IMG/VR virus record: IMGVR_UViG_3300028591_000113
Span: 1-46,086 of that record
DNA from: a virus
Lineage: Duplodnaviria > Heunggongvirae > Uroviricota > Caudoviricetes
Direction: 5' to 3' (one strand)
Length of the DNA stretch: 46,086 nt
Each line of letters begins with the position of its first letter. Within the stretch, counting starts at the first letter, position 1. This document shows positions 29,692 through 46,086 of this stretch, one piece after another. The notes beneath the pieces were generated by a model. The model was not told where the DNA came from. It did no database searches and was given only the letters and a program-made list of their open reading frames with translations. A program made the position numbers and the translations under genes.

Positions 29692-30734
29692 TAGTTCTCC
29701 TTACGTTTAATTGTTGGCGCAACTTCTTCATCTTCGCCAAGATCTTCTTCATCTTCAGCAAAATTATGTTCTGTTGCGACAGTATCATTTTCTGTTTCAA
29801 TCTCGCCATCATCAGGCATAGCATCCATTAAATCAGATAGAGGAGTGGCCTGTGTCGCCGCATTGAAGTGTTCTTCTTCAGTTTGTTCTAATCGTTTTTT
29901 CGCGAGTTGTTCTAAGAGTGGTTGTAAACCTGTTGCTTCTAAAACCAATGATCTAAGGGTTTCTTGCATATCTTTGATACAACCATCTACTTCATCTCTA
30001 TCATAACCATCATAGAATTTGAATTTGAAACCTTGTTTTTCCATGTAATCGTAAAGTTCAGCGACTGTTGTAATGTCGTCTGTCTTTGTTTCTTGAATAA
30101 GGTTATCAAGGTCTGCTTGCTTAGCGAATGTATTCCAAGCGGACGAAAAGTCTTTAATTGCTTTTGCGTCTTTCGCTCTAACAGCTTCATCAATTTCAAT
30201 TTGAAGTTTACAAAGAGTTTTAATTGCTTCTTTTTGAAGTGGGTTAGTAATATTGTTTGCTTTAAGCGTACGTGTATAAATTGAGTCGAGTTTTATTAGC
30301 TCTTCGAAAGTGTATTGCTCGCCCCATTTTAGATGACCTCTTTCGATGTAGGACTCTTTCATTGGTGGCAAGCGATTTAAAATTTGCGCAAAAGAACGGC
30401 ACTTTTCCCATTCGCGGTTAGTGCGTTTTCATAAATCTTTAGTGCTTGATTCGTATGCTAAATTAGGGCGATTTTCTTGTTCGTCCAACATACCGATTGT
30501 ATATTCTCTAAAAATATCTTCGTTGTATTGTTCCATCAAGGAAATCCAAATTTTTGGCATCCATGGAAGATTATATGTTCTACAGAAAAATTCTGCATGT
30601 TCTAAATTGTTGTAATCTAAGTGACTATTGATGCAATCGAAACAAATTGTTTCGCCACTTAGCGGGTTATTACTGAACATAAGTTCTGCTTCTTTTCCGC
30701 ATTGTGGGCATCTTCCTTTTTTAAATGTTATCAT
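29691..30734 (-). CDS. Cys-rich protein, candidate terminase small subunit, 347 aa (code 4)
   Basis: CPQC and CFDC pairs; fragments join through one TGA; stop overlaps the terL start. Confidence 0.6.
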
Positions 30735-31144: not shown

Positions 31145-32146
31145 ATGATTGTATTAAGTATCATATTATCTATAATATGTGTAATATTACTTGGCTTAAG
31201 TATCTATGCTTTCAACCTAAGTCGAAGTTGTCGCCGCATCAAAGACGACTTAGCGCAAGCTAAAGCGAAGCGGGACAAGTTTGAAGCTCTCGCGAACCTT
31301 TACGAAGAACAAAATAAAGACCTCCATGAAAAATTACTACAGAAGGAAAATGATGCTGGTTTCGCGCAAGGTCAACAAGTTCAAGGAGAAGTCCAAGTAC
31401 GCGATGTCGCCGCAGAACTAAATAGTCTTAAAGAACAAAAAGAGATAGAGGCTTTGAAAGTCTCAGGCCTAGCGTTTACCAATTACATGTTTCTTCAGTC
31501 TCTCGCGACTTCTAAGGAAGAGCAATTACAGGTAGCAAACGTTACTCATGGCCTGGAGAACCGCAATAGAGAATTGTTAGAGGAACAATCCACTCTTCAG
31601 GGTGATGTGAAAAATTTACGTAATGAATTGAACCGATACCTTGCCATTAGAGAGGTTGTCGATAAAAGTATCAACGACGTTATTTGGTCTCCGATTTTGA
31701 AGGAAAAAGAAGCCAAATTGGTAGATATCTTAGATGAACTCAAGGATTTATATCCAGATCTTGCGATAGATTTCGCCAACATTGAGTGGAAGAAAATATG
31801 GATGCCGCAACTTCAAGAATTGGGCAGTGCCATCGATAAAGTTAGAGGTATTTATAGATTAGTATTGAAAGGTACTAAAAGTTGGGTAGTCGGCATAGAC
31901 CCACACGATGCGCCGATACTGGCCAGTTACGTCGGTCAGGCTGTGGATATCAAGGAAAGATGGTATCAGCATGTTAAAAAGATGGTCGGCGTAATGAGTA
32001 AGGGCAATGAAAGATTATATAATTATCGACCTGAAGATTTTGATTGGTGCATTGTACAACAAGGTAGTAATGTAGATTTAAATGAAAGTGAAAAATACTG
32101 GATTGATTACTATTGCTGCACCGATGCACTCAACAAGAAAAGGTAG
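31145..32146 (+). CDS. Membrane-anchored coiled-coil protein with C-terminal GIY-YIG nuclease domain, 333 aa
   Basis: N-terminal hydrophobic helix, heptad-rich middle, GIY...YVGQAVDIKERWYQH and E..WIDYY. Confidence 0.75.
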   Translation: MIVLSIILSIICVILLGLSIYAFNLSRSCRRIKDDLAQAKAKRDKFEALANLYEEQNKDLHEKLLQKENDAGFAQGQQVQGEVQVRDVAAELNSLKEQKEIEALKVSGLAFTNYMFLQSLATSKEEQLQVANVTHGLENRNRELLEEQSTLQGDVKNLRNELNRYLAIREVVDKSINDVIWSPILKEKEAKLVDILDELKDLYPDLAIDFANIEWKKIWMPQLQELGSAIDKVRGIYRLVLKGTKSWVVGIDPHDAPILASYVGQAVDIKERWYQHVKKMVGVMSKGNERLYNYRPEDFDWCIVQQGSNVDLNESEKYWIDYYCCTDALNKKR

Positions 32147-32646
32147 TCGGCATAGACCACACTGAAAAAACGGGTATACAAAAAACGTCACACACGATCT
32201 TTTGACCAGAGGGGTGCGGGGAGATTTGCGTTTTTTCCGAGAAAAATGAATATACCCCCCGTGTAGGTTAAATATATACTGCGTATATAAAGACCGACCC
32301 CACCCCTATTTGTAGGTTAAATCTATTCCGTTTGGTATATACACGCATACGCGTATTATAATATATATTGCGTTGCGTGTTTTCTTTTATCTTTTTATAT
32401 ATTGCGTTGCTTTGCGTGTTTTAAGGCGTTTTAAGGCGTTTTTATTGCGTGATAATGTTTTTATATATTGCGTTGCTTAAATTGTCTTAAAATGTCTTTT
32501 TTAATTGTTTTATTTATTTATTATTTATTTGTTATTTATTCATTATTTATTCGTTATTTATTCAATTTTTTTTCATTTTTTAATATATATAAATATATAT
32601 TACTTTTTATTTAAGTGAGTAAAATAAAAAACTTTTATCAAACCTA

Positions 32647-32676
32647 TTGACATATTAAATAAATTGCGCCTATAAT
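32647..32676 (+). promoter_or_regulatory. Consensus promoter TTGACA-N18-TATAAT with AT-rich UP region
   Basis: Exact consensus hexamers downstream of a very AT-rich tract. Confidence 0.75.
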
Positions 32677-32899
32677 AAGTCATCAAAATTACAAACCACC
32701 AAACAAAAAAAGGTTGCTCGTAAACCTTAACACAAAACGGGCGCAAATGTTCTTTGAAAACTGAATAGTCCAAATCAAAAAAAGACCACTAGCGAGTATG
32801 TGCGCGATAATGGGGCAAACTTTGAGATAGGACAAGTAAAGCGCAAATCATACCTATATGCGACTTGAAAACAAACACAAAAGAAAAGAGGAAAAAATT

Positions 32900-33400
32900 A
32901 TGAAAAAGGCAATTTTATTAAGCATTTTAGCACAACAACAACAACAAACCAAAAAGACAACAAGACAAGATATTATCTCACTCGTTGCAAACCTCGTGCA
33001 AAAGCACATTAAAGACAATGCCGAAATTAACGGCATTAACTTAACACGCGACCAAATCGGTGTTAATCTCGGTGAAGTCGTTGAAGTGATTATGAAATCA
33101 CTTTATAGAAACAAACTCGCCAAATCTTCCAGCAATCAACACTTTGACTTAACCGCCAAAGGTGAAAAAGTAGAGGTTAAGTTTACAACTAGCGACGCCT
33201 ATGCGCACCCAATCAACAAGAACGAAAAAGTAGGTTATTACTTAATCGTTGCTTATAGCAAAAAACTCGGTGGTATGGTGTTCAAAGTCCCATACGAAAA
33301 CCGAAACGAAATTGATACAAACAACCAAGCGCGTATCACTATCAACCAAAAACAAAAGTTCTTTGATAAAGAACTCACTGCAAGAGTGTTCGGGGCATAA
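32900..33400 (+). CDS. Hypothetical protein with PD-(D/E)xK-like motif, 166 aa
   Basis: SD GAGGA favours ATG 32900; HFDLTAKGEKVEVKF resembles D-xn-E-x-K. Confidence 0.6.
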   Translation: MKKAILLSILAQQQQQTKKTTRQDIISLVANLVQKHIKDNAEINGINLTRDQIGVNLGEVVEVIMKSLYRNKLAKSSSNQHFDLTAKGEKVEVKFTTSDAYAHPINKNEKVGYYLIVAYSKKLGGMVFKVPYENRNEIDTNNQARITINQKQKFFDKELTARVFGA

Positions 33401-33795
33401 TCCCCGAACCTCTTAAAGAGTTAACCGCAAAAGTAGGTTAATTCTTTAAGAGGTATCTATCACCTCAGTAAGATAGACGGAATACCTATATCTTCCGCAA
33501 ATGTAGGTTAGCACAAAAGGGAGGTGCTGTAAAAGATAAGGTCAATCCGCGTCCTACCTCGTGTTAATGGTAGGTTGTAAGGGTCTCAAAGAATGCCCAA
33601 GAGAGTACTGCGTAAAACGAGGGAAAAAGTAGGTTAGAGGCAAACCACGGATAGACAACAAAGACACTATCAAAAAACTCGGGTCAAAGACCTTGCGCCG
33701 TGCCAATGTAGGTAGACGGAAAACCGCAAAAGTGGGGAGTGGGTATTCACTCCTGCAAGAGATAGACGGAATTGAAGAAAGGTAGGTTAAAAACT

Positions 33796-33951
33796 ATGGC
33801 AAAAGATTTATTACAAGCAATTTACTATCACGAAATGCGCTTAAAATTATTGCGCAGTTGCCCATCGGCAAACAAATCACTCAAAAACAAAATCACACAA
33901 CTTGAAAACGAACTCCACGCGTTAAAAGTGCGCTATATGACCGCATACTAG
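33796..33951 (+). CDS. Small hypothetical protein (51 aa), absent from the ORF track
   Basis: SD AAGG, ATG 33796, TAG 33951; flanked by a 31-bp direct repeat. Confidence 0.65.
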   Translation: MAKDLLQAIYYHEMRLKLLRSCPSANKSLKNKITQLENELHALKVRYMTAY

Positions 33952-33982
33952 ACGGAATTGAAGAAAGGTAGGTTAAAAAATT

Positions 33983-34165
33983 ATGGCTTTCAATTTCAAA
34001 GAAGAACTCATCAAAGAGGGTAGAGAACTCCAAAGTAGGTTAATCGCCTACAAGAACCTTCCGCAGACGGAAAGTTCAAAAGAGGGTATGGAACGTATCA
34101 AATGTAGGTTAGATATGATTAGCACATACCTTCGTGTAAAATATAACATCATGGCTTACAAATAG
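33983..34165 (+). CDS. Small hypothetical protein (60 aa)
   Basis: Same upstream element as 33796; similar C-terminus. Confidence 0.7.
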   Translation: MAFNFKEELIKEGRELQSRLIAYKNLPQTESSKEGMERIKCRLDMISTYLRVKYNIMAYK

Positions 34166-34182
34166 ACGGAAAAACCTTCCGT

Positions 34183-34223
34183 CCTTAGCCAAGCCTTAAA
34201 TGTAGGTTAGGGCTTGGCTAAGG
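34183..34223 (+). other. Long hairpin with TGTAGGTTA in the loop (terminator or processing site)
   Basis: CCTTAGCCAAGCC/GGCTTGGCTAAGG arms. A similar hairpin lies at ~33,409-33,453 (CCTCTTAAAGA/TCTTTAAGAGG). Confidence 0.6.
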
Positions 34224-34308
34224 GCAGACGGAAAGTGGTGCAAACCACTTGCAAGCAACCCTTAAAAATGTTATAATAGTAGCGTAGAAAGAAAGGTAGG
34301 AAAAACAA

Positions 34309-34794
34309 ATGAAAGATTACGCAGACGGAAAATTAAACATCTATATTGATATGGATGGCGTGCTTGCTGATTTCTTCGGCGAGCCAAACAACCTCAAAAG
34401 GTTTGAGACGGAAAAGGGCTTCTTCCGTAGGTTAAAACCCTTCAAAAAGAATGTCCAAGCGGTTAGAAAGTTAATCGCAGACGGAAAACACAATGTGTTT
34501 GTCTTATCGGCAAGTCCAAACGAACGCGCTGATACCGACAAGAGATTATGGTTAGCGCAATATATCCCCGAACTCGAGACGGAAAATGCCATTATTATGA
34601 GAAATGGCGAAAACAAGACCGACTATATGAGAACGGCAGACGGAATTCTCTTTGATGACTACGGCAAAAATATCCAACAATGGTTATGTAAAAATCTCGG
34701 TTGTAATAGAGCCGTAAAGATTAGGACAGACGGAGACATAGCCGATGGACTTAAAGCCATTCACTTATTCCCAAATGCATTGATAAATGCGTAG
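34309..34794 (+). CDS. HAD-family 5'(3')-deoxyribonucleotidase-like protein, 161 aa
   Basis: IYIDMDGVLADF, VLSASP, K..WL, ILFDDYGKNIQQW motifs. Confidence 0.85.
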   Translation: MKDYADGKLNIYIDMDGVLADFFGEPNNLKRFETEKGFFRRLKPFKKNVQAVRKLIADGKHNVFVLSASPNERADTDKRLWLAQYIPELETENAIIMRNGENKTDYMRTADGILFDDYGKNIQQWLCKNLGCNRAVKIRTDGDIADGLKAIHLFPNALINA

Positions 34795-34878
34795 ACGGAA
34801 AATGACACTAGGGGCTTGAATTGAGCCCCTAAGTGTGATATAATGATAGCGTAGCGAAAGAAAGGTAAGGTAAACAAT

Positions 34879-35061
34879 ATGCGCGAATACATTAACACAC
34901 AAACAGGAGAAATCATACACACAGACGGATTTCGTTTACACGCATACAAGGTCTTAAAGAACGGAGACCACACAACAAGACTTGGAGATGTAATTTCTCT
35001 AAAGAAATATAGACGGAAACAAGCCCGTCAAGCCGCCAAGCATCTGGATGCTCTGTTGTAG
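34879..35061 (+). CDS. Small hypothetical protein (60 aa)
   Basis: Own promoter and SD AAGG. Confidence 0.65.
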   Translation: MREYINTQTGEIIHTDGFRLHAYKVLKNGDHTTRLGDVISLKKYRRKQARQAAKHLDALL

Positions 35062-35315
35062 GTTAAAACTTAGACGGAAATCAAGCAAGCCAGACGGAAT
35101 CCGTCGTGGGGTGAGACGGAAGTAGGTTAAGAATATCAAGCAGACGGAAACTGAAAAATACCCCTTGCAATTCGCTAAGAAAGAGTTTATAATTAGTAGT
35201 GTGAGGTAAAGAAAAAGATAAAGAGAACCTCGCAGACGGAAAATGAAAAAAGTGGTTGAATACCCCACTTAAAAATGATATAATATATATGTAAGAAAGG
35301 TAAGGTAAAAAACTT

Positions 35316-35549
35316 ATGACAAAGAAAACAACAAAGAAAGCATACGAAACAAAGGTCTCAGACGGAAGAATTGAAATCAAGTTAATCGTTCCAACCACAG
35401 ACGGAAAGGCGCATACAGCCAGCGCACCAAACCCATTCGTGTGTCAAGTGGAAGACGCAGACGGAAAAATGGTTATGAAACAATTAACCAAGAAACAGAC
35501 GGAAGCCTTCTTGTTTGACCAAATCAAGCAATACATTAAAGCCCAATAG
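35316..35549 (+). CDS. Small hypothetical protein (77 aa)
   Basis: Own promoter and SD. Confidence 0.7.
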   Translation: MTKKTTKKAYETKVSDGRIEIKLIVPTTDGKAHTASAPNPFVCQVEDADGKMVMKQLTKKQTEAFLFDQIKQYIKAQ

Positions 35550-35649
35550 GGCAGACGGAAATAAGTAAAAACTACTTGTTTCTCTAATGTAGATATGATA
35601 TAATATCTATGTTAGAAAGATAAGTAAAGGAAAGGTAGGGCAGACGGAA

Positions 35650-35910
35650 ATGAAAAAAGTTGTAATGTATGGCAAACATAGTAAAATTGCATTATACACT
35701 GGTAGTGAGACGGAATGTAAAAGATACATTCTAGGTATATGTGAACCGCTCGCAGACGGAAGACGTATCTATCGTAAGTTAGATATGCCAGACGGAACAG
35801 TCTATGATATAGGGCAACCCGTTATGTATCAAATTGTTGACGCGGCAGACGGAGAAATTGGTATCTACAATGAGCCAGACGGAAATCAGCCACCGATAAT
35901 AACGGGCTAG
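35650..35910 (+). CDS. Small hypothetical protein (86 aa)
   Basis: Own promoter; AGACGGAA abuts the ATG. Confidence 0.7.
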   Translation: MKKVVMYGKHSKIALYTGSETECKRYILGICEPLADGRRIYRKLDMPDGTVYDIGQPVMYQIVDAADGEIGIYNEPDGNQPPIITG

Positions 35911-36411
35911 ACGGAAATGAGAAAAAACCACTTGTTTCTCTACAAGTATTATGATATAATACTTGTATAGAGATAAGTAAAATGCTTATCCAAGTTGTCT
36001 TAAATCCTCCTTACAACTACATGCAGACGGAAACAAGAAAATCCCTCTTGTTTCTACATAGGTATTATGATATAATACTTATGTAGAGATAAGAAAGTTA
36101 GTAAGTCCCACAAAGAAGTGGGCAGACGGAAATCTCAAAAAGGTCTTGAATATCATTGAAAAAAATGATATAATAAAGACACAAGAGAAAATGAAAGAGT
36201 TGTAAGTCGCTTGAAACCAAGTAGGGCGCAGACGGAAATCAAAAAAATCTCTTGAATTGAAATCGCATTTATGATATAATAAATGTGTAAAGAAACTTAA
36301 CCCATCTTCCACTTTGAAAAGGAAACGGGCAGACGGAAAACTGAAAAACCACTTGAAAGATAATTCAAGTTATGCTATAATATCTATGTAAGATAAGAAA
36401 GGGGAAAAATT

Positions 36412-36687
36412 ATGGCAGAAAAGAAACAATGGGAAATGAACGAAACCCAAAAATCATTCGTTGAAATCTTAAGAGCAAATAGGGAAAACTACCCAGACGG
36501 AATGACCTTAAGAGAAATCAAAAAGGTCAGTGGTATCGCCTTCAAAACAGGTAGCATTAACACCTTAAAGACCAAAGGTCTTGTCAACACAGACGGAAAA
36601 CGTGAGTTCGTTGCCGATATCGTGTATGACAACGAAGTCATCGGTCATAAGTCCTATGCCGATACAGTCTACGCTCTCGTGGACTAA
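36412..36687 (+). CDS. Winged-helix-like putative DNA-binding protein, paralogue 1 (91 aa)
   Basis: Helix-helix-helix plus beta-wing pattern (MTLREIK...FKTGSINTLKTKGLV...VYALVD); clearly homologous to 41182. Confidence 0.65.
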   Translation: MAEKKQWEMNETQKSFVEILRANRENYPDGMTLREIKKVSGIAFKTGSINTLKTKGLVNTDGKREFVADIVYDNEVIGHKSYADTVYALVD

Positions 36688-37089
36688 TCGGTAGGCAAAG
36701 CCCAGACGGAAGGGCTTAAATGCCCTTCCCCCATTACAATGGGTTCAGACGGAATTTAACTACCTACCTTTCACCCGACTGAACCTATTGTAATGGGTGG
36801 GCACGCTCACCCAGACGGAAATCGGTTCTTCTAGTATACCACTCGCCTACGGAAAAGGAGAAAAGACTAGACGGAATTGTTTGGCTAACCGAGATTAACC
36901 AACCCCATGCCGTAGATATGGAACTAGACGGATGACGATTTCACCACTTTACCAAGAGCGCAGAAAGGGTTTAGAACACAACTAAGGATAAATGTGCGTA
37001 TTGGTCTAACTGAGCCGGAAGTAGGTTAGACCCCACGAGACGGAAAACATTAAAATCTCTTGTATCTCTATTGTTATTATGATATAATA

Positions 37090-37312
37090 ATAACATAAGG
37101 AGAACCCATTAAAGAGTTTCCACTACCACAACTGTGTGTGAAGAGGTTACCAAGTGAGCGCGTAGACGGAAAACTTTGACGAAAGTTTTTAAGGGGCTAT
37201 GTCCAAGACCAGAATAGGTTATCTAGATTATATAGCAGACTATCACACAACTATATAACTGTTGCCTTGCGGTAGACGGAAACTCTTTAATGGGGCGAAA
37301 TGAGAAAACTCC
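37090..37312 (+). ncRNA. Candidate ~200-nt structured small RNA
   Basis: Promoter at 37060-37088, no ORF, perfect 17-bp closing helix 37105-37121/37278-37294, internal hairpins. Confidence 0.5.
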
Positions 37313-37596
37313 AGACGGAAGCGAGTGAACTTCCCTTAAAATCACTCCAGTTAATTGGTTGCTGACCTAACCATCCGCGCAGACGGAAACCTCCTGCCCA
37401 TCTCCATTACTTACCATATCCCTTAATGTCGTTATTAAGTAGGTTATGAAAGTTGGAAAGTTGAAACTCACAGACGGAATAAGGATAACAACCTAAACGG
37501 AGACGGAATTAGAAACAAACTACTTGTTTCTAATAGGTATTATGATATAATACTTATATAGAGATAAGTTAAAAAAGGAAAGGAAGGTAGACGGAA

Positions 37597-38304
37597 ATGA
37601 GAAACTATAACACCTATCTAAAAGGTATGGAAAAAGGAAACAGCGAAAAACTATTCTTCTTAGACAAAATTAACCTAGACGGATTTAACACCATCATTGA
37701 CTTCGGTTGCGGCAAAGGTGATATATTGAAAGCGTGCGCAGACGGAAAGCGCTTACTCATTGGTATTGACCACGACCCTATTATGCGAGAAATCGCGCAA
37801 AAGAATGTGCCTAGTGCGACATTCTTACCTAAGTTAGAAAAACATATGCTAGACGGAAAAACTCTCATTATCTTCTCGTCTGTCCTTCACGAAATTGAAG
37901 ACTACTGGACGGAATTAGAGAAACTCCTCAAAGGTAGTCATGCAACAGTAGTCGTAAGAGATATGCGCTTTACTGGGACAGACGGAACATTAGACAAGAC
38001 GGAATTGGCTAAAATCGTTCATAAGTCTAACCCACATATGCTCGCTGAGTTCGTTGAAAGATATGGTTTGAGTAGACGGAAAGACCTCTATCATTGGCTC
38101 TTAAAGTATTCTTATGTTGACAACTGGGAATTAGAACTCAAAGAAAACTATTTCAGTTTTGATTACAGCAAACTCTTTGCGCTTGGTAAAGTAGTTTATG
38201 AAAATAACTATACACTAGCGTTCAAGAAAAAGAAAGTTAAACAAGATTACGATATTGATTTAACAGACGGAACACATACTCAGTTAATTATTAAGTTAGA
38301 CTAA
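37597..38304 (+). CDS. Class I SAM-dependent methyltransferase, 235 aa
   Basis: IIDFGCGKGD motif I, LIGID, IIFSSVLHEI. Confidence 0.85.
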   Translation: MRNYNTYLKGMEKGNSEKLFFLDKINLDGFNTIIDFGCGKGDILKACADGKRLLIGIDHDPIMREIAQKNVPSATFLPKLEKHMLDGKTLIIFSSVLHEIEDYWTELEKLLKGSHATVVVRDMRFTGTDGTLDKTELAKIVHKSNPHMLAEFVERYGLSRRKDLYHWLLKYSYVDNWELELKENYFSFDYSKLFALGKVVYENNYTLAFKKKKVKQDYDIDLTDGTHTQLIIKLD

Positions 38305-38318
38305 AAGGAGACGGAATT

Positions 38319-38552
38319 ATGACCTTAGAATTAACCTATAAAAGTGAAGGCACACTCAATGTCAACATTGATGAATGTGTTAAAGATTATAAACGACTAC
38401 TTGCAAACGGAAGCGATTGCACTGTTGAAGAATACGTTGATGACTTTTGGGCGGGATTAGATGACCCTATCTATTACTGTGATAACAACGAAGAATTACA
38501 GACGGAAATCTGTAATGCGATGAAAAAACAACTCGCCTTTGAAATAAACTAA
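38319..38552 (+). CDS. Small acidic hypothetical protein (77 aa)
   Basis: SD AAGGAG merged with GACGGAA. Confidence 0.7.
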   Translation: MTLELTYKSEGTLNVNIDECVKDYKRLLANGSDCTVEEYVDDFWAGLDDPIYYCDNNEELQTEICNAMKKQLAFEIN

Positions 38553-38567
38553 AAAGGAGACGGAATT

Positions 38568-38771
38568 ATGAGAAAAGTTTATGCGCTACTTGTAAAGAAA
38601 AATCATACCGACCACGGTTATCTCCCTGTTGCAGTTCAATTCTCTTTCAATAAAGAAGAATTAGACGGAATTGCGGAAGCCATTAACAATCAAGTAGACG
38701 GATGGGGTTCTGCAAAAGTGGAAGAAGTAGACGGAAGCGTTGCTGAATGGAACTTCCCACATCCATACTAG
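38568..38771 (+). CDS. Small hypothetical protein (67 aa)
   Basis: SD AAGGAG merged with GACGGAA. Confidence 0.7.
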   Translation: MRKVYALLVKKNHTDHGYLPVAVQFSFNKEELDGIAEAINNQVDGWGSAKVEEVDGSVAEWNFPHPY

Positions 38772-39083
38772 ACGGAAATGAGTGAAACTACTTGTTTCCT
38801 TAATGTAGATATGATATAATATCTATGTTAAAGAGATAAGTTAATCTCTAATCTACCATGACCAAGACGGAACAAGTCGACTAACCGTTGCGGGGTACAA
38901 TCCAAGGTCAGACGGAATTGTGAAAGTGAGTAGCGTGCCGCACTGGCATAAGTCGCGTGAAAATGGACACACACGGTAGACGGAAAATAAAAATTGCCTA
39001 TTTACAAGCAATTAAAAGCGTGCTATAATTAAGGCACAACAAAGGTAAGAAAAGAAAAAAAACGAAAGGAAGGTCAGACGGAA

Positions 39084-39701
39084 ATGAAAGTATTAGTTCT
39101 TGACACTGAAACATTAGGGGTCGCCGACCCATCAGTCTACAACTTTGGTTATCTAATTTATGATACCGTAGACGGAAAAACACTAGTAGAAAGAGATTAT
39201 ATCTCGACGGAAATCTACGACAACCACCGCGAAATGAGTAAGGCATTTTATAAAAATAAAATCCCACTCTATGAACAACGCTTAGCAGACGGAAGTTGTA
39301 AGAAAATGAAATGGTCTTATGTCTTGCGAATGTTCAAAAGGGACATTAACAAGTTTAAGCCAGACGGAATCTTCGCTTACAATAGTGGCTTTGACTTCCG
39401 CGCCATCGCAAAGACTTGCGAAAAGTTAGGGACTAAGACTAACCCTACATCACACGGAATTAGGGACATTTGGAAAGGTTTGACCGACCCGTTGATTACC
39501 TCAACTCCTGAGTATCAAGATTTCTGCAGACGGAATGGTTATATGACCAAGCACGCTAAACCAAAAGTTAGAGCGACCGCGGAAATTGTATACCGCTACC
39601 TTACGGGGCAGACGGAATACGAAGAAGAACACACTGCTCTTGCTGATAGTAAGATAGAATGTGTTATCCTACAAAGGGCGTTGGCAATTGCCAGCGCCTA
39701 G
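39084..39701 (+). CDS. DEDDh 3'-5' exonuclease, 205 aa
   Basis: VLVLDTET, FAYNSGFD, HTALAD motifs. Confidence 0.9.
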   Translation: MKVLVLDTETLGVADPSVYNFGYLIYDTVDGKTLVERDYISTEIYDNHREMSKAFYKNKIPLYEQRLADGSCKKMKWSYVLRMFKRDINKFKPDGIFAYNSGFDFRAIAKTCEKLGTKTNPTSHGIRDIWKGLTDPLITSTPEYQDFCRRNGYMTKHAKPKVRATAEIVYRYLTGQTEYEEEHTALADSKIECVILQRALAIASA

Positions 39702-39717
39702 ACGGAAAGGAGTAATT

Positions 39718-39939
39718 ATGGTAAAATTATCTATTACATTAGGCGATGATAACAACAAAGAATATCGCAAAGAAATTGAAGTAGAAGTAGACGGAACCAC
39801 CGCTCTTCTTATTAGAGACCGTTGTCGCACAGCCGACCCTGATGACTATGGTCGCGCGTGGGATAATATGCTCTATGCTATTGAAACACAATACCCAGAC
39901 TTACCACGAGATTGGTATGTCTACCACATTGAAAGATAA
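39718..39939 (+). CDS. Small hypothetical protein (73 aa)
   Basis: SD AGGAG favours ATG 39718. Confidence 0.7.
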   Translation: MVKLSITLGDDNNKEYRKEIEVEVDGTTALLIRDRCRTADPDDYGRAWDNMLYAIETQYPDLPRDWYVYHIER

Positions 39940-39951
39940 GGAGACGGAATT

Positions 39952-40362
39952 ATGTTAATTAAAGTTAAACAACCAGACGGAACAATAAGAGAAATTAACC
40001 TCAAAGATAGCGATATCCTCGAGTTCGCAGATTGGTGGAAACTTACACCACTCTCACCACAGACGGATGTTGATGATGCTTTCTATGAAGCCAACCAAAT
40101 TATTAGCGAAACCTTGGCTAATGAATATCCAAAAGACTTAGAAGATTATGGTTATGCTGAATGGGAATACGTTGAAGAAGACGGAATTGACTACCACGAT
40201 GTGTTCCATGATTACTTCCATGAAGTTATCAATGATTGGCAGACGGAAAGTAGAAAAAACTACTTCTTAGAACAACTTGATTATGGTTATGCCGACCTTG
40301 AATACTTCAAAGAAGATGATGAGTATGTCTACTTCCGCGCAAAACGAAGTGAGTTCAGATAA
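39952..40362 (+). CDS. Very acidic, aromatic-rich protein (136 aa), DNA-mimic candidate
   Basis: About 35 D/E residues with many Y/W/F; SD GGAG. Confidence 0.7.
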   Translation: MLIKVKQPDGTIREINLKDSDILEFADWWKLTPLSPQTDVDDAFYEANQIISETLANEYPKDLEDYGYAEWEYVEEDGIDYHDVFHDYFHEVINDWQTESRKNYFLEQLDYGYADLEYFKEDDEYVYFRAKRSEFR

Positions 40363-40396
40363 GAGAGACGGAATTGTCTCTCTTTTCTTTTTTTTT
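40363..40396 (+). terminator. Terminator closing the motif-rich early unit
   Basis: GAGAGAC-GGAATT-GTCTCTC followed by a long T-run. Confidence 0.85.
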
Positions 40397-40439
40397 ATGG
40401 ACGGAATTCCGTCTGGGCGTTCCGTCTATTCATCTTCCG

Positions 40440-40930
40440 TCTGCCATTGTAGGTTAATTGATTTCAATGATTATGTTGCTATTCTTTCCCGACAATCTTG
40501 TTATCCTACTTTGAAGTTAACCTACTTCGCGCCGTGCGGTTTGTAGGTTAATGGTCGCGGGGTGGGGCCCCAAATGTAGGTTAAAGAACCTTTAAGCAGC
40601 AGCAGCTATAAAGGATTTTTGGGACCTCGTAGGTTAAAAATTGGGGTTGAAAAAATTTTCTGTAGGTTAATAATGAACTTTTCCTTGACATTTCCGAATG
40701 TAGGTTAATACAGATTCCGCCTGCGGCGCGGTTGTAGGTTAAGTAGGTTAATTAAAGCAGCAGCAGCCGCACCATATTGCATATTTGGGGTTAACCTACA
40801 CTTTTGTGGGTTAATTTAGTTGTTAATTAGTACTTGACATAGGATCTTGTAGGTTAATAAAGTTAACAACTTTTTATAATATGTTTGTTGTTAGAAATTT
40901 TTCTGGACAAGATCGATTGTAGGTTAATAA
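40440..40930. repeat. Non-coding cluster of about 12 TAGGTTA (usually TGTAGGTTAA) copies in both orientations
   Basis: Plus-strand copies near 40449, 40545, 40577, 40630, 40663, 40700, 40735, 40743, 40850, 40920; minus-strand copies near 40519 and 40792. Confidence 0.9.
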
Positions 40931-40950
40931 AAAAATAAGTGAAGTTTTGC

Positions 40951-41151
40951 TTGAACTACCCGAACGGGTGTGCTATAATTATTTATGTAAGGTGAAAGAA
41001 GAAAAAGAATTAGAAAAAAATAATTCAAAAATGTCTTGACCGATACCCCAAAAATATGATATAATATATATGTAAGGTAAAGGAAGAAAGAAATTAAGAA
41101 TTAAAATCTAATTAAAAACTTCTTGACCTAACACAAAAGTTATGATATAAT
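40951..41151 (+). promoter_or_regulatory. Three tandem sigma70-type promoters upstream of winged-helix paralogue 2
   Basis: TTGAAC-17-TATAAT (40951), TTGACC-18-TATAAT (41036), TTGACC-17-TATAAT (41123). Confidence 0.75.
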
Positions 41152-41181
41152 TAAAGTATAAAGAAAAGGAGAAAATTAATT

Positions 41182-41445
41182 ATGGCTAACAAAAACACTT
41201 GGCAAATCAACGACACTCAAAAGGCTTTCTTAGAAGCCTTAAAGGCTAACAACGGTAAGGCTACCTTATTTGAATTAAACTACTTCAAGGGTTACAACTT
41301 CAAATCTGGTTCCATCAACGCCTTAATCGGTAAGGGCTTAGTCAAAGCCGAAGATGAAGTCACCTACGAATGTGACAAGGTCTACAACGGCGTCAAAGTC
41401 GGTACCGTTAAGGTCACTGCTAAGGTCTACGAATTAGTAGACTAA
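41182..41445 (+). CDS. Winged-helix-like putative DNA-binding protein, paralogue 2 (87 aa)
   Basis: W.IN.TQK.F.E.LKAN...TL.E....FKSGSIN.L..KGLV...VY.LVD shared with 36412; strong codon bias. Confidence 0.7.
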   Translation: MANKNTWQINDTQKAFLEALKANNGKATLFELNYFKGYNFKSGSINALIGKGLVKAEDEVTYECDKVYNGVKVGTVKVTAKVYELVD

Positions 41446-41468
41446 TAGTAGGGTAACCGAAAACTCAA

Positions 41469-41496
41469 AGGGGCAATAGCCCCTTTTTTTATTTTT
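41469..41496 (+). terminator. Rho-independent terminator
   Basis: AAGGGGC-AATA-GCCCCTT followed by a T-run. Confidence 0.85.
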
Positions 41497-41756
41497 ATGT
41501 TTTTAACCTACAATCGATCGGCTTTTTACCCGACGGAATTAACCTACAAATTATGTGGGTTAACCACCTTCCCCGAAATGTCGATCGTCACTTTTATGCA
41601 CTTTTTGCATGGAACCGCGCATCGTATAATCTTTAGTGAAGCAGCAAAAAAGGCTGGATTAAGGCAGCAGTTTATGGCATAATATATATGTAAGGTGAAA
41701 AAAGGAAATAAACAAAACCTTATGAAAAATAAATTAGCATAACATTGAAAAAGTTA

Positions 41757-41785
41757 TTGACTTAACTCGAAAAGTGTGCTATAAT
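41757..41785 (+). promoter_or_regulatory. Promoter TTGACT-N17-TG.TATAAT driving the ORF-less GC-rich segment
   Basis: Near-consensus hexamers with extended -10; no credible SD/ORF downstream. Confidence 0.8.
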
Positions 41786-41794
41786 TATTATACA

Positions 41795-43390
41795 AGGTAA
41801 GTAAAGAAATAAATTATTTCTTTCAAACCCCCTGTGCAACAGCTCCCTACTCGGCGTATACTGCACATTAAAAAACAAAGAAGAGAGTCGAAGCCCACTG
41901 AGCAGACAGGGCAGCGCGAAAGGTCCTAAAGTCTGCTCCCTAACATAAGTTGGAACCCCATGACCGGCAGCCGCAAGGCGGGGGCAACGTACCTCAGAGA
42001 AATCGCCGAGCACGGGCTTAAATTCCCCGAAGCAAGAGGCAGGTTGATTCCCTGCAACTCTTCCTTATGTATTCCTGTGTGTGTTCCAGATGTTCGGACA
42101 CCCTATGCGTCAAGGTAATGGCGCAATTGATGGCCGCCCTAGCTAGGATAGTTCGGTCTAGCAGAAACTAGATGGGCGAGATTAAGTTCTCGTTACGGGT
42201 GCAAATCCTCGAGTGGTCCCAAAACACCCACGCAGCAGTGACCAGGGTGAGTACTAAGACGTCAAAACGTGAAAGCCCCTGCTGTACCGCGGGCCAACAG
42301 CCCCAAGCTTAGATATTAACGCGGTATACAAAAGATTGACAGACCTTGGGAAATCCAATGATAGCGACGGACTGCGGTTCTAACTACAGAGAATAAATAA
42401 GGCTCGCCAGCGGCGACTTGGATAGGCTTAAGAGACTAAACACCTGGACGATGAGCATTGCGCATGCATCTAGCCAAAGCGACTCTCGGAGTTGGCGAGA
42501 TCCAACTGGGTAGGATAGACCCCAATCATTCCGACGCAGCGTCGTGCACTGCTCCTCCAACAAGAATGGGGGATGGACAAGATGAATAAGGCAGTGGTGA
42601 GAGTCCACTTTAAACAACCGTTTCTGCACAAAGTCACTCAGCAGAAGAGTTAATCTGCCGTTAGACACAAACGTAATATGTATGTCTCGACTGCCAGAGA
42701 TAAAGGCTAATAAGTCCATTGGCACGGACCAATGCAATTGGGAGAAACATAGTGTAATGGCTACATGAAACATAGTAGAGGAAAATCCATTAAACTCATC
42801 TGGCGTGGTGCGAAACCAGAAGATTGTCATCGTGGTTGGTGACCTATGTAGGCATGATAACAAACCTTATATTGAGGAGCCACTGAGGTAATGGTAACTC
42901 CGACGGCAATTGATAGTGCCTTGAAAACTATCCGCGCGGCAATGGTTTGTGACAGTCGCAACTGTCTAGGATCAACGATGTGCTGGCGACACCCTGACTC
43001 CTGGGTACGGAGATGCCGGAGAGAAACCGGCACAATAGATTTAGCGTGACTACGGGCGCTTAGTTCAGGGTGAGAACTAAAAAATGCTGAGCCGCTACCG
43101 ATGACGTGAGTCGGTGGGTTGTTCCCTTATCACAAAAACCCTCGTCCATGTGGGTATAAACAGAAATGGACGTCAGCCAGAGAAAGTGAACGCCAACGGG
43201 CGTACTGGAAGTCATGCGGCGGCAAACGTGTGCAGTATCTTTGCCGAGGTACTTATTGTAATCCCTTTGTCTTCGCTGTGGCGCGAAGATCCGCTGATAT
43301 CTGTAAACTATCAAACGTGCTGGCGCATCAGCGTTAAAAAATTAAATGAATGCGCGTATTTGAGACCTCTAGCCAGGTCTCTTTTTATTT
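41795..43390 (+). ncRNA. Candidate giant structured non-coding RNA (~1.55 kb)
   Basis: Promoter and terminator bounded, GC visibly about 50% versus about 30% in the flanks, no credible ORF, long-range helix 41850-41867/43229-43248, many GNRA- and T-loop-like hairpins. Confidence 0.72.
43362..43390 (+). terminator. Terminator ending the candidate giant RNA
   Basis: GAGACCT-CTAGCC-AGGTCTC followed by TTTTTATTTT. Confidence 0.85.
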
Positions 43391-43618
43391 TGAAAAAAAT
43401 TTTTCCGTCTGGATTATACCACGTTTTACGCAGTAAGTCCAGAGTTTTTTATTTAATTTTGGGAAGGAAAACTTTCGACTTTTTCCTCCCCAAATTTTTG
43501 TCCCGAAAAGTATATATTATTCGGGACATTTTTGTCCACTTAACCGGACAATTTGTCCGGGTGGTTAACCTACACATTTTGTGGGTTAACAAAGTAGCAG
43601 GCTTAATGTAAATTATAC

Positions 43619-43647
43619 TTGCAAAAGCCGAGTAAGTATGGCATAAT
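43619..43647 (+). promoter_or_regulatory. Promoter TTGCAA-N17-TG.CATAAT
   Basis: Hexamers with a 17-nt spacer upstream of the operon ending in the sigma gene. Confidence 0.7.
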
Positions 43648-43696
43648 ATATATGAAAGATAAGAAAAGCATTAAAATAAGTAAAGGAGAAAATACG

Positions 43697-43918
43697 ATGA
43701 AACTGAAAGAATTAATTAACGTGATGGATGACGACACAGTAGTCTGTGTTTGTGATGATTATGGCGCGATGACTGATGTTGCACCATTAAAAAACATTGG
43801 TGTTAAAAGCCTTATGAACCATTTAGACCGCGGAGTTAATCGTATTTACTTCGATAAAGAAGATGGTTCAATTACTATTGAATTGGAGGATTATGACTAT
43901 GAGGAAGGAAACGATTAA
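43697..43918 (+). CDS. Small acidic hypothetical protein (73 aa)
   Basis: SD AAGGAG favours ATG 43697. Confidence 0.7.
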   Translation: MKLKELINVMDDDTVVCVCDDYGAMTDVAPLKNIGVKSLMNHLDRGVNRIYFDKEDGSITIELEDYDYEEGND

Positions 43919-44048
43919 GGTTAAGGTTGACCAAACCAAATTACCAAATAAAATGCACTTTGATGTGCAACGTAAAACTCATGCGAACGTCTTCCGTGAC
44001 CGCACGAAGTATACCCGCAAAAGAAAACATAAAAACAAGGAGGATTAA
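43899..44048 (+). CDS. Small basic protein (49 aa) with ArfA/BrfA-like tail
   Basis: SD GGAGG; MRKETIKVKVDQTKLPNKMHFDVQRKTHANVFRDRTKYTRKRKHKNKED. Confidence 0.65.
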   Translation: MRKETIKVKVDQTKLPNKMHFDVQRKTHANVFRDRTKYTRKRKHKNKED

Positions 44049-44050
44049 TT

Positions 44051-44248
44051 ATGTTTGAAGTAAGAAAATTATATAACCACGAATTAGTCCAAACTTTCCC
44101 AACCTACCAAACAATGATCGACTTCATCTGTCAAGAGGCTATGGATTATAACTGCGGTATCTACCGCAAGTGGCCGCAAGATGGTGGCGAATGTTTTGAC
44201 ACGAGTAAGAATGTTTACTTCGTCAAAGAAATTCCCGAAATAGACTAA
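44051..44248 (+). CDS. Small hypothetical protein (65 aa)
   Basis: SD GGAGG; IYRK..DG...FD pattern shared with 35650. Confidence 0.7.
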   Translation: MFEVRKLYNHELVQTFPTYQTMIDFICQEAMDYNCGIYRKWPQDGGECFDTSKNVYFVKEIPEID

Positions 44249-44313
44249 ATAGTTCTGGAATAAACCCGCCAGTTATGTTATAATAAATTATAAAGAAAAG
44301 TAAAGGAGTAAAT

Positions 44314-44568
44314 ATGGCTAAACCAAAAGAATTCCCTGTTGAAGTTAAGAAAGACGTTAACGGATGTTGGTCCGGTAGCGCGTATTTATTAGATAAGAAA
44401 ACCAATAAAGTTTTCTGTGTTAGTTGTGCGGTTGCCCCAGGCACTCACAACAATCAAGCAAAACCACAAATCCGTGAAAGATTAAAAGAAATGTGTGCGG
44501 AACGCATGGAGTTAAATCCTAACTATGTGCGCATTACACACGAAGAAGCAAACAAAATAGATATGTAA
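44314..44568 (+). CDS. Hypothetical protein (84 aa)
   Basis: SD AAGGAG. Confidence 0.7.
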   Translation: MAKPKEFPVEVKKDVNGCWSGSAYLLDKKTNKVFCVSCAVAPGTHNNQAKPQIRERLKEMCAERMELNPNYVRITHEEANKIDM

Positions 44569-44579
44569 GGAGGAACAGC

Positions 44580-45413
44580 ATGGAAACATCATCATTCAAA
44601 GATTATTTAGTTCAAATCGCCAAGTATCCATTACTTCAACCAGAAGAAGAAAAGGCGCTTGCCTATCGTATTCGTGAAGGTGATGAAGATGCGCGTGAAC
44701 AACTCATCAATTCTAACTTACGTCTTGTCGTTTATCTCGCCAAGAACTACAAATCTAACTTCCTCGATTTAGAGGACCTCGTAATGGAAGGTAACCTTGG
44801 TCTTTTTACTGCGGTTGATAAGTTCAACCCAGACTTGGGCAATAGATTTTCAACTTGCGCCACACCATGGATTAAACAAGCCATTATGAAAGCAATTACT
44901 GAAAAGGGTAAGAACGTTCGTTTACCAGCCAACGTCTATCAAGCCCTCAACAACATGAAGAAAGCCGTTGATGCGCTCGCAGAAGATGGCATCTTATCAC
45001 CAACAGACGCGCAAATCGCCGAAAAGATGGGCATTGAAGAAGAAAAGATCGCCCTCTTAAAACAATGGAAGAAAGACACTGTGTCTTTAAGTGTTCCATT
45101 AGGTGATGAAAGCGAAGATACTCTTGAAGACTTACAAGCCGACCCTAACGACGAAAGCCCTGTTGCTTACGCAGAGCGTAAGATGGACGAAGAGTTCGTT
45201 AGAAAAATCTTGAAGGACTTGCCTGACAGAACCCGCACCATCATGAAAATGAGATATGGTTTGGGTGATGAAAATGACCCAGAAGATTGGCAAAGAGAGC
45301 ATACTTTGGAAGAAATTGGTGATTATTTAGGTCTAACTCGTGAAAGAATTAGACAAATTGAGAAACAAACCCTCCAAGAACTTAAAGTTCAGCTCGCAAA
45401 ATACGCTTATTAG
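44580..45413 (+). CDS. Phage-encoded sigma70-family RNA polymerase sigma factor, 277 aa
   Basis: Region 1.2 (DYLVQIAKYPLL), region 2 (NLRLVV...EGNLGL..AVDKF), region 3, region 4.2 (TLEEIG...TRERIRQIE). Confidence 0.95.
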   Translation: METSSFKDYLVQIAKYPLLQPEEEKALAYRIREGDEDAREQLINSNLRLVVYLAKNYKSNFLDLEDLVMEGNLGLFTAVDKFNPDLGNRFSTCATPWIKQAIMKAITEKGKNVRLPANVYQALNNMKKAVDALAEDGILSPTDAQIAEKMGIEEEKIALLKQWKKDTVSLSVPLGDESEDTLEDLQADPNDESPVAYAERKMDEEFVRKILKDLPDRTRTIMKMRYGLGDENDPEDWQREHTLEEIGDYLGLTRERIRQIEKQTLQELKVQLAKYAY

Positions 45414-45510
45414 TGAAAAATTACGACTAAAACCGTTAAAAACCACATAAAATACCGAGATAAAAGGCACAATTACTTGAAAAATTAACACCTTTTGAGT
45501 GAAAAAGTTG

Positions 45511-45539
45511 TTGCCTTTTATCTAAAAGTGGTATATAAT
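45511..45539 (+). promoter_or_regulatory. Promoter TTGCCT-N17-TATAAT
   Basis: Hexamers with a 17-nt spacer. Confidence 0.6.
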
Positions 45540-45720
45540 GTTAATGTAAAGATAAGAAATAAACTAAATGACTTCCTCCTAACCAGCCTTCTCGTGGCGA
45601 AGTCGTGAGTAGGATACTTCCGAAACAAATTGGGTTAAGGTGAAAAAAGTTGTTGCTTAACCGTAACAACTAGCGTAAGATAAAGATAGAAATAAAAAGA
45701 AAGGAAAATGTCTAACTTTT

Positions 45721-46086
45721 ATGGCAGAAAAACAATCAAAGTTCACAGTCAACGATAACGACAGACTTATCGCTGGCGCACTCAAAGGTACTGACGGCCT
45801 CACAATCGCAGAATTAAACGAAGCAATCGGTGGTAACTTACTCCCAATTCACTTCAACCATGCTAAAACTGGTGGTTTCATTGAAAAAATCGGTGAAAGA
45901 ACAGTTACAAAACAACGCCCAAGCCAAGTTTGCGTTTATTACTACATCAATAGTGATGTCGCTTCTGATGCTAAAGGCAACCCATGCAACTACTCTGATG
46001 CTCAAAACGCTATCTTAGCCGCTGCTGCTGGTATGGAAGGTGACTTCATCTTATCCGACCTCGCTAAAGCAATGGGTGTTGAAAAA
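45721..46086 (+). CDS. Tandem winged-helix-like protein, distant paralogue 3, runs off the window and is absent from the ORF track
   Basis: MAEKQSKFTVNDNDRLIAGALKGTDGLTIAELNEAIGG...GFIEKIGERTV...VYYY, then a second unit YSDAQNAILAAAAGMEGDFILSDLAKAMG; strong codon bias. Confidence 0.65.
   Translation, partial: MAEKQSKFTVNDNDRLIAGALKGTDGLTIAELNEAIGGNLLPIHFNHAKTGGFIEKIGERTVTKQRPSQVCVYYYINSDVASDAKGNPCNYSDAQNAILAAAAGMEGDFILSDLAKAMGVEK

Follow-up and report, generated by a model that had tools for sequence, protein, structure and literature searches.

In class I promoters of sigma-70 RNA polymerase the activator CAP sits at -61.5, -71.5 or -82.5, the monomeric activators MarA, SoxS and Rob act on asymmetric sites, and in the late promoters of phages P2 (Ogr) and P4 (Delta) the activator element is centred near -55. 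Here we compare with these systems a 46,086-nucleotide stretch of IMG/VR record IMGVR_UViG_3300028591_000113 (the whole stretch analysed, hereafter the window), which belongs to a 130-kb uncultured phage known from gut or rumen samples of sheep, goats and cattle. In a 7-kb early-gene block of the window an octamer, AGACGGAA, stands at a fixed offset upstream of the -35 box of 14 promoters and recurs, always in the same orientation, through the intervening genes; together these make up a new promoter class within an unusual oriented octamer 'barcode'. With somewhat better than even confidence, we predict from sequence comparison that AGACGGAA is recognised by a sequence-specific DNA-binding protein, most likely one or both of the phage winged-helix proteins that we call wHTH-A and wHTH-B.

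The octamer class shares with class I promoters a site on one face of the helix upstream of the -35, allowed positions that lie whole turns apart and, in this phage, a -35 that looks weak; here an A-tract between site and -35 could seat the carboxy-terminal domain of the polymerase alpha subunit (alpha-CTD). Unlike the 22-bp dyad bound by CAP, however, the octamer is an asymmetric 8-mer, centred near -54, -44 or -65, its regulator is probably phage-encoded, and the site is repeated some 65 times more inside transcription units. The marbox resembles it in that orientation and distance to the -35 both matter, in having upstream and -35-proximal classes, and in its many extra copies; the marbox is nevertheless 20 bp long and degenerate, its extra copies are randomly oriented and unselected, and its readers have an AraC-type rather than a winged-helix fold. 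As in P2 and P4, an element at about -55 marks every promoter of what would be one temporal class, and a small phage-encoded activator serves those phages, as a candidate protein may here. The P2 element, by contrast, is a partial dyad (TGT-N12-ACA) that is limited to four promoters and absent from gene bodies.

The window holds 81 copies of AGACGGAA, where 0.79 would be expected. On the plus strand between 33475 and 40373 there are 76 exact copies, and on the minus strand of this block there are none; counting the 7-mer core AGACGGA, the block contains 83 sites, all on the plus strand. Just five more copies of AGACGGAA occur in the rest of the phage genome (~123 kb). The extended consensus is (C/T)AGACGGAA(A/T). 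Copies are also more evenly spaced than chance would allow, with a mean interval of 84 bp, few gaps above 130 nt and a coefficient of variation of 0.51 against 0.98 for random placement (none of 20,000 simulations was as even); the spacing is likewise even in two relatives, L169 and L218 (L numbers denote related loci). We looked in the block for 10.5-bp phasing between successive copies and found none. A literature search found no discussion of the octamer as a motif, searching a phage collection at the nucleotide level, both for the block and for 25 kb of the window, gave no matches, and neither did an Rfam scan of 32000-46086. The block and its downstream boundary are laid out as follows.

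33475..40373, plus strand: the whole octamer array, with copies in coding sequence, in spacers between Shine-Dalgarno (SD) sequence and ATG, over stop codons and in intergenic DNA
40361..40400, plus strand: intrinsic terminator closing the block, its stem including the final plus-strand octamer (40366-40373)
40407..40442, minus strand: three inverted octamers directly behind the terminator, the first of which forms a head-to-head palindrome, GACGGAATTCCGTC, with a degenerate plus-strand copy
40449..40926, plus strand: region poor in open reading frames (ORFs) flanking the block and carrying GCAGCAGCAGC tracts and 12 GTAGGTTA repeats, 10 of them direct and 2 inverted

Scanning the plus strand with the pattern TTGnnn-N16-18-TATAAT recovered 13 promoters, from 34249 to 38792, and all 13 have AGACGGAA upstream at a fixed offset, with 14 nt between the end of the octamer and the -35 hexamer in six cases and 15 nt in seven. 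A fourteenth promoter, at 39001 (TTTACA-N17-TATAAT), has a gap of 15 nt. The scan thus confirms the first-pass annotation, made from the sequence alone, which had listed these 14 promoters with an octamer ending 14 or 15 nt before the -35 and had put it at about -58 to -51; taking the -35 hexamer as -35 to -30, we find that it spans about -58/-57 to -51/-50. That promoters outside the block lack the octamer also holds, as those at 32647, 40951, 41036, 41123, 41757 and 45511 have none within 570 nt upstream. When 76 motifs were placed at random in the 7-kb block, no more than 5 of the 14 promoters acquired a matching offset in 200,000 trials. Two points needed qualifying. The intervening sequence, said to differ each time, does so in most of the 14 units, whose spacers and -35 boxes are unlike, but the units have in common an A-tract (about -46 to -41) and a C before the -35, and some are paralogues (35576 and 38792; 35932, 36048 and 37524). 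The 14 promoter copies, moreover, are real but make up merely about a sixth of the signal, there being 76 copies in the block. The promoter units, and the octamer-free promoters with which we compared them, are these.

34226..34277, plus strand: unit 1, octamer 34226-34233, gap 15, TTGCAA at 34249, N17, TATAAT
34793..34844, plus strand: unit 2, octamer over the TAG stop of the NT5C gene, gap 15, TTGAAT at 34816, N17, TATAAT
35142..35193, plus strand: unit 3, gap 15, TTGCAA at 35165, N17, TATAAT
35234..35284, plus strand: unit 4, gap 14, TTGAAT at 35256, N17, TATAAT
35553..35604, plus strand: unit 5, gap 15, TTGTTT at 35576, N17, TATAAT; paralogue of unit 13
35909..35960, plus strand: unit 6, octamer over a TAG stop, gap 15, TTGTTT at 35932; first of five tandem promoters before wHTH-A
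36025..36076, plus strand: unit 7, gap 15, TTGTTT at 36048
36124..36174, plus strand: unit 8, gap 14, TTGAAT at 36146
36230..36280, plus strand: unit 9, gap 14, TTGAAT at 36252
36331..36381, plus strand: unit 10, gap 14, TTGAAA at 36353; last tandem promoter before wHTH-A
37038..37088, plus strand: unit 11, gap 14, TTGTAT at 37060
37501..37551, plus strand: unit 12, gap 15, TTGTTT at 37524, N16, TATAAT
38770..38820, plus strand: unit 13, octamer over a TAG stop, gap 14, TTGTTT at 38792
38978..39029, plus strand: unit 14, gap 15, TTTACA at 39001, N17, TATAAT
40951..41151, plus strand: comparator, three tandem octamer-free promoters with -35 boxes TTGAAC (40951), TTGACC (41036) and TTGACC (41123)

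The window therefore contains two promoter classes: the block class, which combines the octamer with the A-tract at about -46 to -41, a poor -35 (TTGTTT, TTGAAT or TTGCAA) and, in 12 of 14 cases, an extended -10; and, outside the block, a consensus class with better -35 boxes, TTGAC(A/C/T) or near-consensus, preceded by a AAAAAGTT-type tract. Note that the octamer, at 50% G+C and with an invariant GACGG core, is not an UP element (A/T-rich, -40 to -60); the A-tract alone resembles the proximal UP subsite.

Palindromes centred on the -10 enclose the promoters at 35932-35965, 36048-36085, 35576-35610 and 38792-38826 (for example CTACAAGTATTATGATATAATACTTGTATAG); their arms vary in sequence from promoter to promoter while complementarity is kept, and they may be operators or hairpins in read-through RNA. 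Two stretches inside the block are free of ORFs, 35910-36411, where the five tandem promoters lie ~100 bp apart, and 36688-37596. Within the latter, 36690-37060 folds much better than its shuffles (z -4.9) and has no Rfam match, which suggests, from the predicted fold, a structured noncoding RNA. Assembled contigs from RNA libraries span most of 33402-40184 and lend weak support to transcription of the block.

Relatives of the phage were recovered by scanning viral contigs for a three-copy octamer pattern, with collagen-like coding repeats (gaps that are multiples of 9) removed. Further members were phage contigs binned in metagenome-assembled genomes (MAGs), picked up by a scan of bacterial genomes (L267, L315, L340/L281 and L369), and loci reached through winged-helix homologues (L381, L383 and L385-L388). 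(A two-copy pattern was too loose for viral contigs, giving chance single matches only, and relatives found through the sigma factor (L126) or Phass-1 (L131) had no octamer array. In bacterial genomes a composite promoter pattern gave more than 120 matches, nearly all of them single copies with A-rich flanks and a broad spread of gaps, as chance would give at real promoters, and the multi-copy matches were phage contigs binned inconsistently into MAGs, from which no host could be assigned.) Loci L169, L138/L247, L218 and L160 have ~70-75% nucleotide identity to the window and are syntenic with it over 25-36 kb; the octamer-promoter arrangement is kept in L169, L138/L247 and L218. L159/L258 have no detectable nucleotide similarity by blastn and have a gene set in common with the window at 31-48% amino-acid identity (NT5C nucleotidase, winged-helix A, exonuclease and winged-helix B). 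In L159/L258 the core ends 16-17 nt before a perfect TTGACA at 12 promoters, and the flanking promoters are without it.

To take stock of the gap between octamer and -35, we measured the distance from the nearest upstream core in 15 loci, several of which are close relatives and two of which come from one lineage. Of these promoters, 115 have a gap of 13-18 nt, 13 a gap of 5-7 nt and 8 a gap of 26-27 nt; other gaps of up to 60 nt are limited to 8 promoters. The gap is constant within a lineage, and three genomes carry two gap classes with unrelated spacers: 7 and 17 nt in L315, 14-15 and 26-27 nt in L388, and 5 and 14 nt in L387. The classes lie about one helical turn apart, a periodicity that fits what would be expected of a factor bound to one DNA face relative to polymerase; in class I promoters the site likewise works only at positions on one helical face, in steps of ~10-11 bp. 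The first-pass annotation had suggested shifting the motif by 5 versus 10 bp; the natural variation among relatives is in effect the same test, and its outcome fits face dependence. Cassette duplication alone would not be expected to yield such steps. Such a natural series of gaps provides unusually clean comparative evidence for dependence on the face of the helix.

These data suggest how the octamer might act. Each block promoter carries one copy in fixed orientation on one helix face, centred near -54 and just upstream of the A-tract, and a protein bound there could touch RNA polymerase much as class I activators do through alpha-CTD. The octamer promoters, with their extended -10 and poor -35, would then form a temporal class separate from the consensus promoters. 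A protein that might read the octamer is encoded within the block, and two paralogues lie beyond it.

36412..36687, plus strand: wHTH-A, 91 amino acids, candidate octamer reader, within the block behind five tandem octamer promoters
41182..41445, plus strand: wHTH-B, 87 amino acids, paralogue of wHTH-A and alternative candidate reader, just outside the block behind three tandem octamer-free consensus promoters
45721..46086, plus strand: wHTH-C, tandem double winged-helix paralogue, which continues to 46215, past the window

The structure model of wHTH-A (pLDDT, the predicted local distance difference test score, of 89) is a confident winged-helix fold, in which three helices are joined by a beta-hairpin wing of some length. 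With a family profile we obtained matches in all 8 of the octamer loci that had been retrieved without its help and in none of the 13 octamer-free relatives; in the other direction, all six loci fetched through distant family members carry AGACGGA arrays. Clustering the family at 50% identity gives ~200 clusters, and at 90% more than 600, none of them annotated, and a search of a language-model atlas returned unnamed clusters only. The layout is conserved as well, with five to six tandem octamer promoters before wHTH-A (six in the L159 lineage) and tandem octamer-free promoters before wHTH-B. For this widespread, uncultured clade of large phages from gut and rumen, whose winged-helix family has more than 600 members in metagenomes, the octamer marks out a promoter class with a probable regulator and offers a simple marker for early-gene blocks.

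Relatives found through the exonuclease gene fall into two groups, octamer-bearing (L247 and L258) and octamer-free, and in most octamer-free loci a 19-bp palindrome precedes most early promoters. The palindrome is TTAGGTGG-N3-CCACCTAA in L248-L254 and L257 and TTAGATGT-N3-ACATCTAA in L255/L256; L259 and L260 have neither octamer nor 19-bp palindrome. It ends 8-10 nt before the -35 (4 nt in L255), and with the usual gap its centre lies at ~-54, the same as that of the octamer. A lineage-specific upstream element at about -54, whose sequence changes between lineages, thus appears to be widespread in this phage group, which points to a reader encoded by the phage and away from an intrinsic feature of polymerase. 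A Pfam search with ten small proteins of the palindrome lineage L249 identified no DNA-binding protein. (Each 19-bp palindrome comes after a GC-rich hairpin in L249, L256 and their relatives. A different palindrome, (A)TGAAAACGTTTTCA(T), stands upstream of octamer-free promoters in several distant octamer lineages, namely L159/L258 (690 and 7211), L315 (1100-1133), L340 (1000-1700) and L385, and is absent from this window.)

Most copies of the octamer lie elsewhere than at promoters. Only 14 of the 83 cores are promoter-linked; in categories that overlap, 41 lie within the block's 13 genes (28 in the frame encoding x-Asp-Gly, 10 in the x-Thr-Glu frame and 3 in the third frame), 7 lie in an SD-ATG spacer or abut a start codon, 5 overlap a TAG stop (3 of these being also among the 14 promoter copies), and the remaining ones are intergenic. 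The imprint on the proteins is plain: those of the block have 30 Asp-Gly pairs in 1379 residues, 28 of them encoded GACGGA, whereas the 4492 residues encoded by control genes from this phage contain 14, of which none is encoded GACGGA; the excess in the block is 7-fold. Orthologues retain the octamer at the same place even by a change of frame and amino acids (ETE versus ADG). As cryptic promoters, the non-promoter copies score no better than random positions. Two genes serve as examples.

34309..34794, plus strand: NT5C-type 5'-deoxyribonucleotidase gene, with 6 in-frame octamer cores (ADG or ETE codons)
39084..39701, plus strand: DnaQ-like exonuclease gene, with 5 octamers

The ~65 co-oriented non-promoter copies are under strong selection at the nucleic-acid level, and they must serve either that same reader or some second process that follows the direction of transcription. 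In-gene octamers reshape proteins under a DNA- or RNA-level constraint of a strength otherwise usual only in genome-wide signals such as Chi or uptake sequences, yet here within one expression block, and explaining them could reveal a new layer of control in phage takeover. Possible, though clearly less probable than the predicted binding itself, is that the winged-helix reader, or a partner, also recognises the octamer every ~84 bp along transcribed DNA, in a direction-dependent manner, so that the copies form a 'track' through the genes. Such a track would either retain polymerase on the DNA of the block or set the block apart as a polar, self-labelled domain, with the inverted copies behind terminators serving as stops. 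If so, viruses would have a novel means of organising an entire block of expression, and one imposed on protein sequence.

Inverted octamers in the clade occur mainly in small clusters that follow the terminator of a rightward unit. In this phage, L247, L258 and L369 the cluster stands at the block's downstream end, whereas in L315 it precedes the block and follows the terminator of the gene before it. Each cluster holds a head-to-head palindrome (AGACGGA, 0-3 nt, TCCGTCT) beside GCAGCAGC tracts. The conservation of these head-to-head pairs at a block boundary would fit a protein able to bind also as a dimer.

For the octamer as the site of a DNA-binding regulator upstream of the -35, which the first-pass annotation had argued for, the gap classes, the palindrome at about -54 and the co-occurrence with winged-helix genes all speak, but that proposal does not account for the ~65 non-promoter copies. 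Several observations weigh against our interpretation. A plain promoter-factor model leaves unexplained 62 non-promoter copies that are co-oriented, evenly spaced and forced into proteins. Promoters of distant lineages already have a consensus -35 and an extended -10, so an activator seems unnecessary there. The octamer clade is possibly a single lineage, in which case co-occurrence with the winged-helix genes may reflect shared descent and amounts to few independent events. A fold search of the Protein Data Bank (PDB) with wHTH-A yielded generic winged-helix matches (ScpB, ArsR and RTP), none with E <= 0.001. Finally, the octamer is identical where the winged-helix proteins have diverged to ~30-40% identity, which a conserved host factor would fit too.

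As for the presumed sign of regulation, we tentatively prefer recruitment or activation, to which we give a little less than an even chance, to shut-off, which we rate at between a fifth and a quarter. The poor -35 boxes of this phage (TTGTTT, TTGAAT and TTGCAA, accompanied by an extended -10) suggest activation; the consensus promoters of distant lineages (perfect TTGACA in L159, L315 and L388) and the autoregulatory layout around wHTH-A leave room for shut-off.

The best placed of the alternatives, though itself rather unlikely, retains the same kind of regulator and makes the octamer an operator for shut-off of the block, or a polar roadblock or insulator. Made in abundance from its five tandem octamer promoters, wHTH-A would cover ~80 sites and turn off the early block; the copies inside units would be oriented to let polymerase pass, and the inverted copies behind terminators would stop read-through. 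This reading draws on the autoregulatory layout, with five to six tandem octamer promoters before wHTH-A in near and distant lineages alike, on the consensus promoters of distant lineages, which need no activator, on the location of inverted clusters always behind the terminator of a rightward unit (the window, L247, L258, L369 and L315) and on the co-orientation of all 62 non-promoter copies. A site at -54 is clear of the core contacts of polymerase, however, and thus poorly placed for a repressor, and the poor -35 boxes here suggest a need for help. Tus and RTP are the precedents for polar block; that a winged-helix monomer would block polymerase in a polar manner is argued by analogy with them.

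Improbable, to our minds, is a role at the level of RNA, in which AGACGGAA in early transcripts would be bound every ~84 nt by an RNA-binding protein or an anti-motif RNA, with the promoter copies incidental. The effect would be protection of the RNA, a block to Rho or RNase, or timed decay of early mRNA; T4 RegB, for instance, marks early mRNAs for decay at GGAG. Orientation always equals the direction of transcription, and this includes the opposite-strand unit of L340, where the one opposite-strand octamer to lie 16 nt upstream of a promoter shares that promoter's orientation, an arrangement that counts equally for the binding-site reading. Also in favour are the copies in the SD-ATG spacers of 7 genes and abutting three start codons, the even spacing with few gaps above 130 nt, and the TTCCGTCT clusters just past terminators, which would pair with the motif upon read-through. 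In local folding the octamer is somewhat more accessible than GC-matched 8-mers (0.099 versus 0.058), but its accessibility equals the mean of all 8-mers and the antisense motif scores higher. An RNA-level role, moreover, fails to explain a -35 gap that is fixed within lineages and changes by whole helical turns, and in sister lineages the equivalent element is a palindrome found at promoters only.

Slightly less probable still is an oriented signal by which a translocating enzyme would be steered or halted on the DNA that enters the cell first. Chi, KOPS (FtsK orienting polar sequences) and DNA-uptake sequences are oriented, over-represented octamers, and like them AGACGGAA is a strand-oriented 8-mer imposed on coding sequence in any frame. 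Those signals, by contrast, are genome-wide and tied to replication direction or uptake; the octamer stays within 7 kb, occurs at ~50 times their density and is phase-locked to promoters. The enzyme could be a host AddAB-type nuclease, a translocase or a phage nuclease that degrades host DNA, and the array would be a 'self' barcode of a segment like the pre-early, first-step-transfer region of phage T5 (bioRxiv 10.1101/866236). By gene content the block appears to resemble that region, with small early genes, a 5'-deoxyribonucleotidase and a nuclease followed by a repeat-rich untranslated region, although T5 has DnaA boxes there rather than an octamer array. In support, the octamer is ~100-fold over-represented and independent of frame (76 plus-strand and 0 minus-strand copies, with all three frames used), its copies converge at the boundary, and the genes for a 5'-deoxyribonucleotidase and an exonuclease, with a repeat-rich, ORF-poor region after them, recall the T5 dmp and A1/A2 genes and injection stop. 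Against this, the array occupies 7 of 130 kb, which is not the whole-replicon, end-polarised and host-shared distribution of Chi or KOPS, and the phase-locked promoter position is left unexplained. The inverted cluster of L315 lies upstream of the array, in divergent orientation, contrary to a geometry of end protection; we had considered genome ends between convergent arrays with Chi-like end protection, and dropped the idea given this opposite arrangement. Matches in bacterial genomes, furthermore, mostly look like chance singles or, where multi-copy, are the same phage group in MAGs, and the record breaks within a collagen-like repeat gene.

Very improbable is that the fixed spacing is the mere inheritance of one duplicated promoter cassette that chanced to include the octamer, as might be argued from the paralogous promoters (35576/38792 and 35932/36048/37524) and from strain variants that gain or lose cassettes with joints beside octamers, because spacers and -35 boxes are unlike in most units, the arrangement survives at 31-48% protein identity, and gap classes one turn apart coexist with unrelated spacers.

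Strain variants do differ by whole small-gene cassettes with joints beside octamers, and cassette exchange seems to use the repeated boundaries. Goat and sheep strains lack the 73-amino-acid gene at 39718-39939, the joint of the deletion (39713-39948) falling right after octamers with 7 nt in common, and the same strains have 199 other bases in place of 34736-35188. T4-type phages have promoter-early stem-loop cassettes (PeSLs) at early-gene boundaries (PMC2839356), and these too are repeated early-promoter cassettes among small early genes whose borders match gain and loss of genes between strains; PeSLs, by contrast, consist of a promoter and a stem-loop, without a phase-locked octamer or in-gene copies (PMC2839356).

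A second repeat, GTAGGTTA(A), occurs in 26 plus-strand and 5 minus-strand copies across 32263-35122 and 40449-40926, clustering to either side of the octamer block; 10 direct copies fall within 40.45-40.93 kb. Two copies also act as putative ribosome-binding sites (33782 and 33968). The repeats could represent origin iterons or a packaging site, or be bound by another paralogue of the winged-helix family.

A collagen-like Gly-X-Y gene on the minus strand, with a 9-bp-periodic GGACC repeat, occupies 129375-130018 of the record and 1-360 of the window; because it runs across both ends of the record, these ends are assembly breaks. Late-gene neighbours (30429-30734; L386) encode YonG/YonD/YonB-type domains, familiar from the Bacillus SPbeta prophage, which hint at structural kinship of the phage group.

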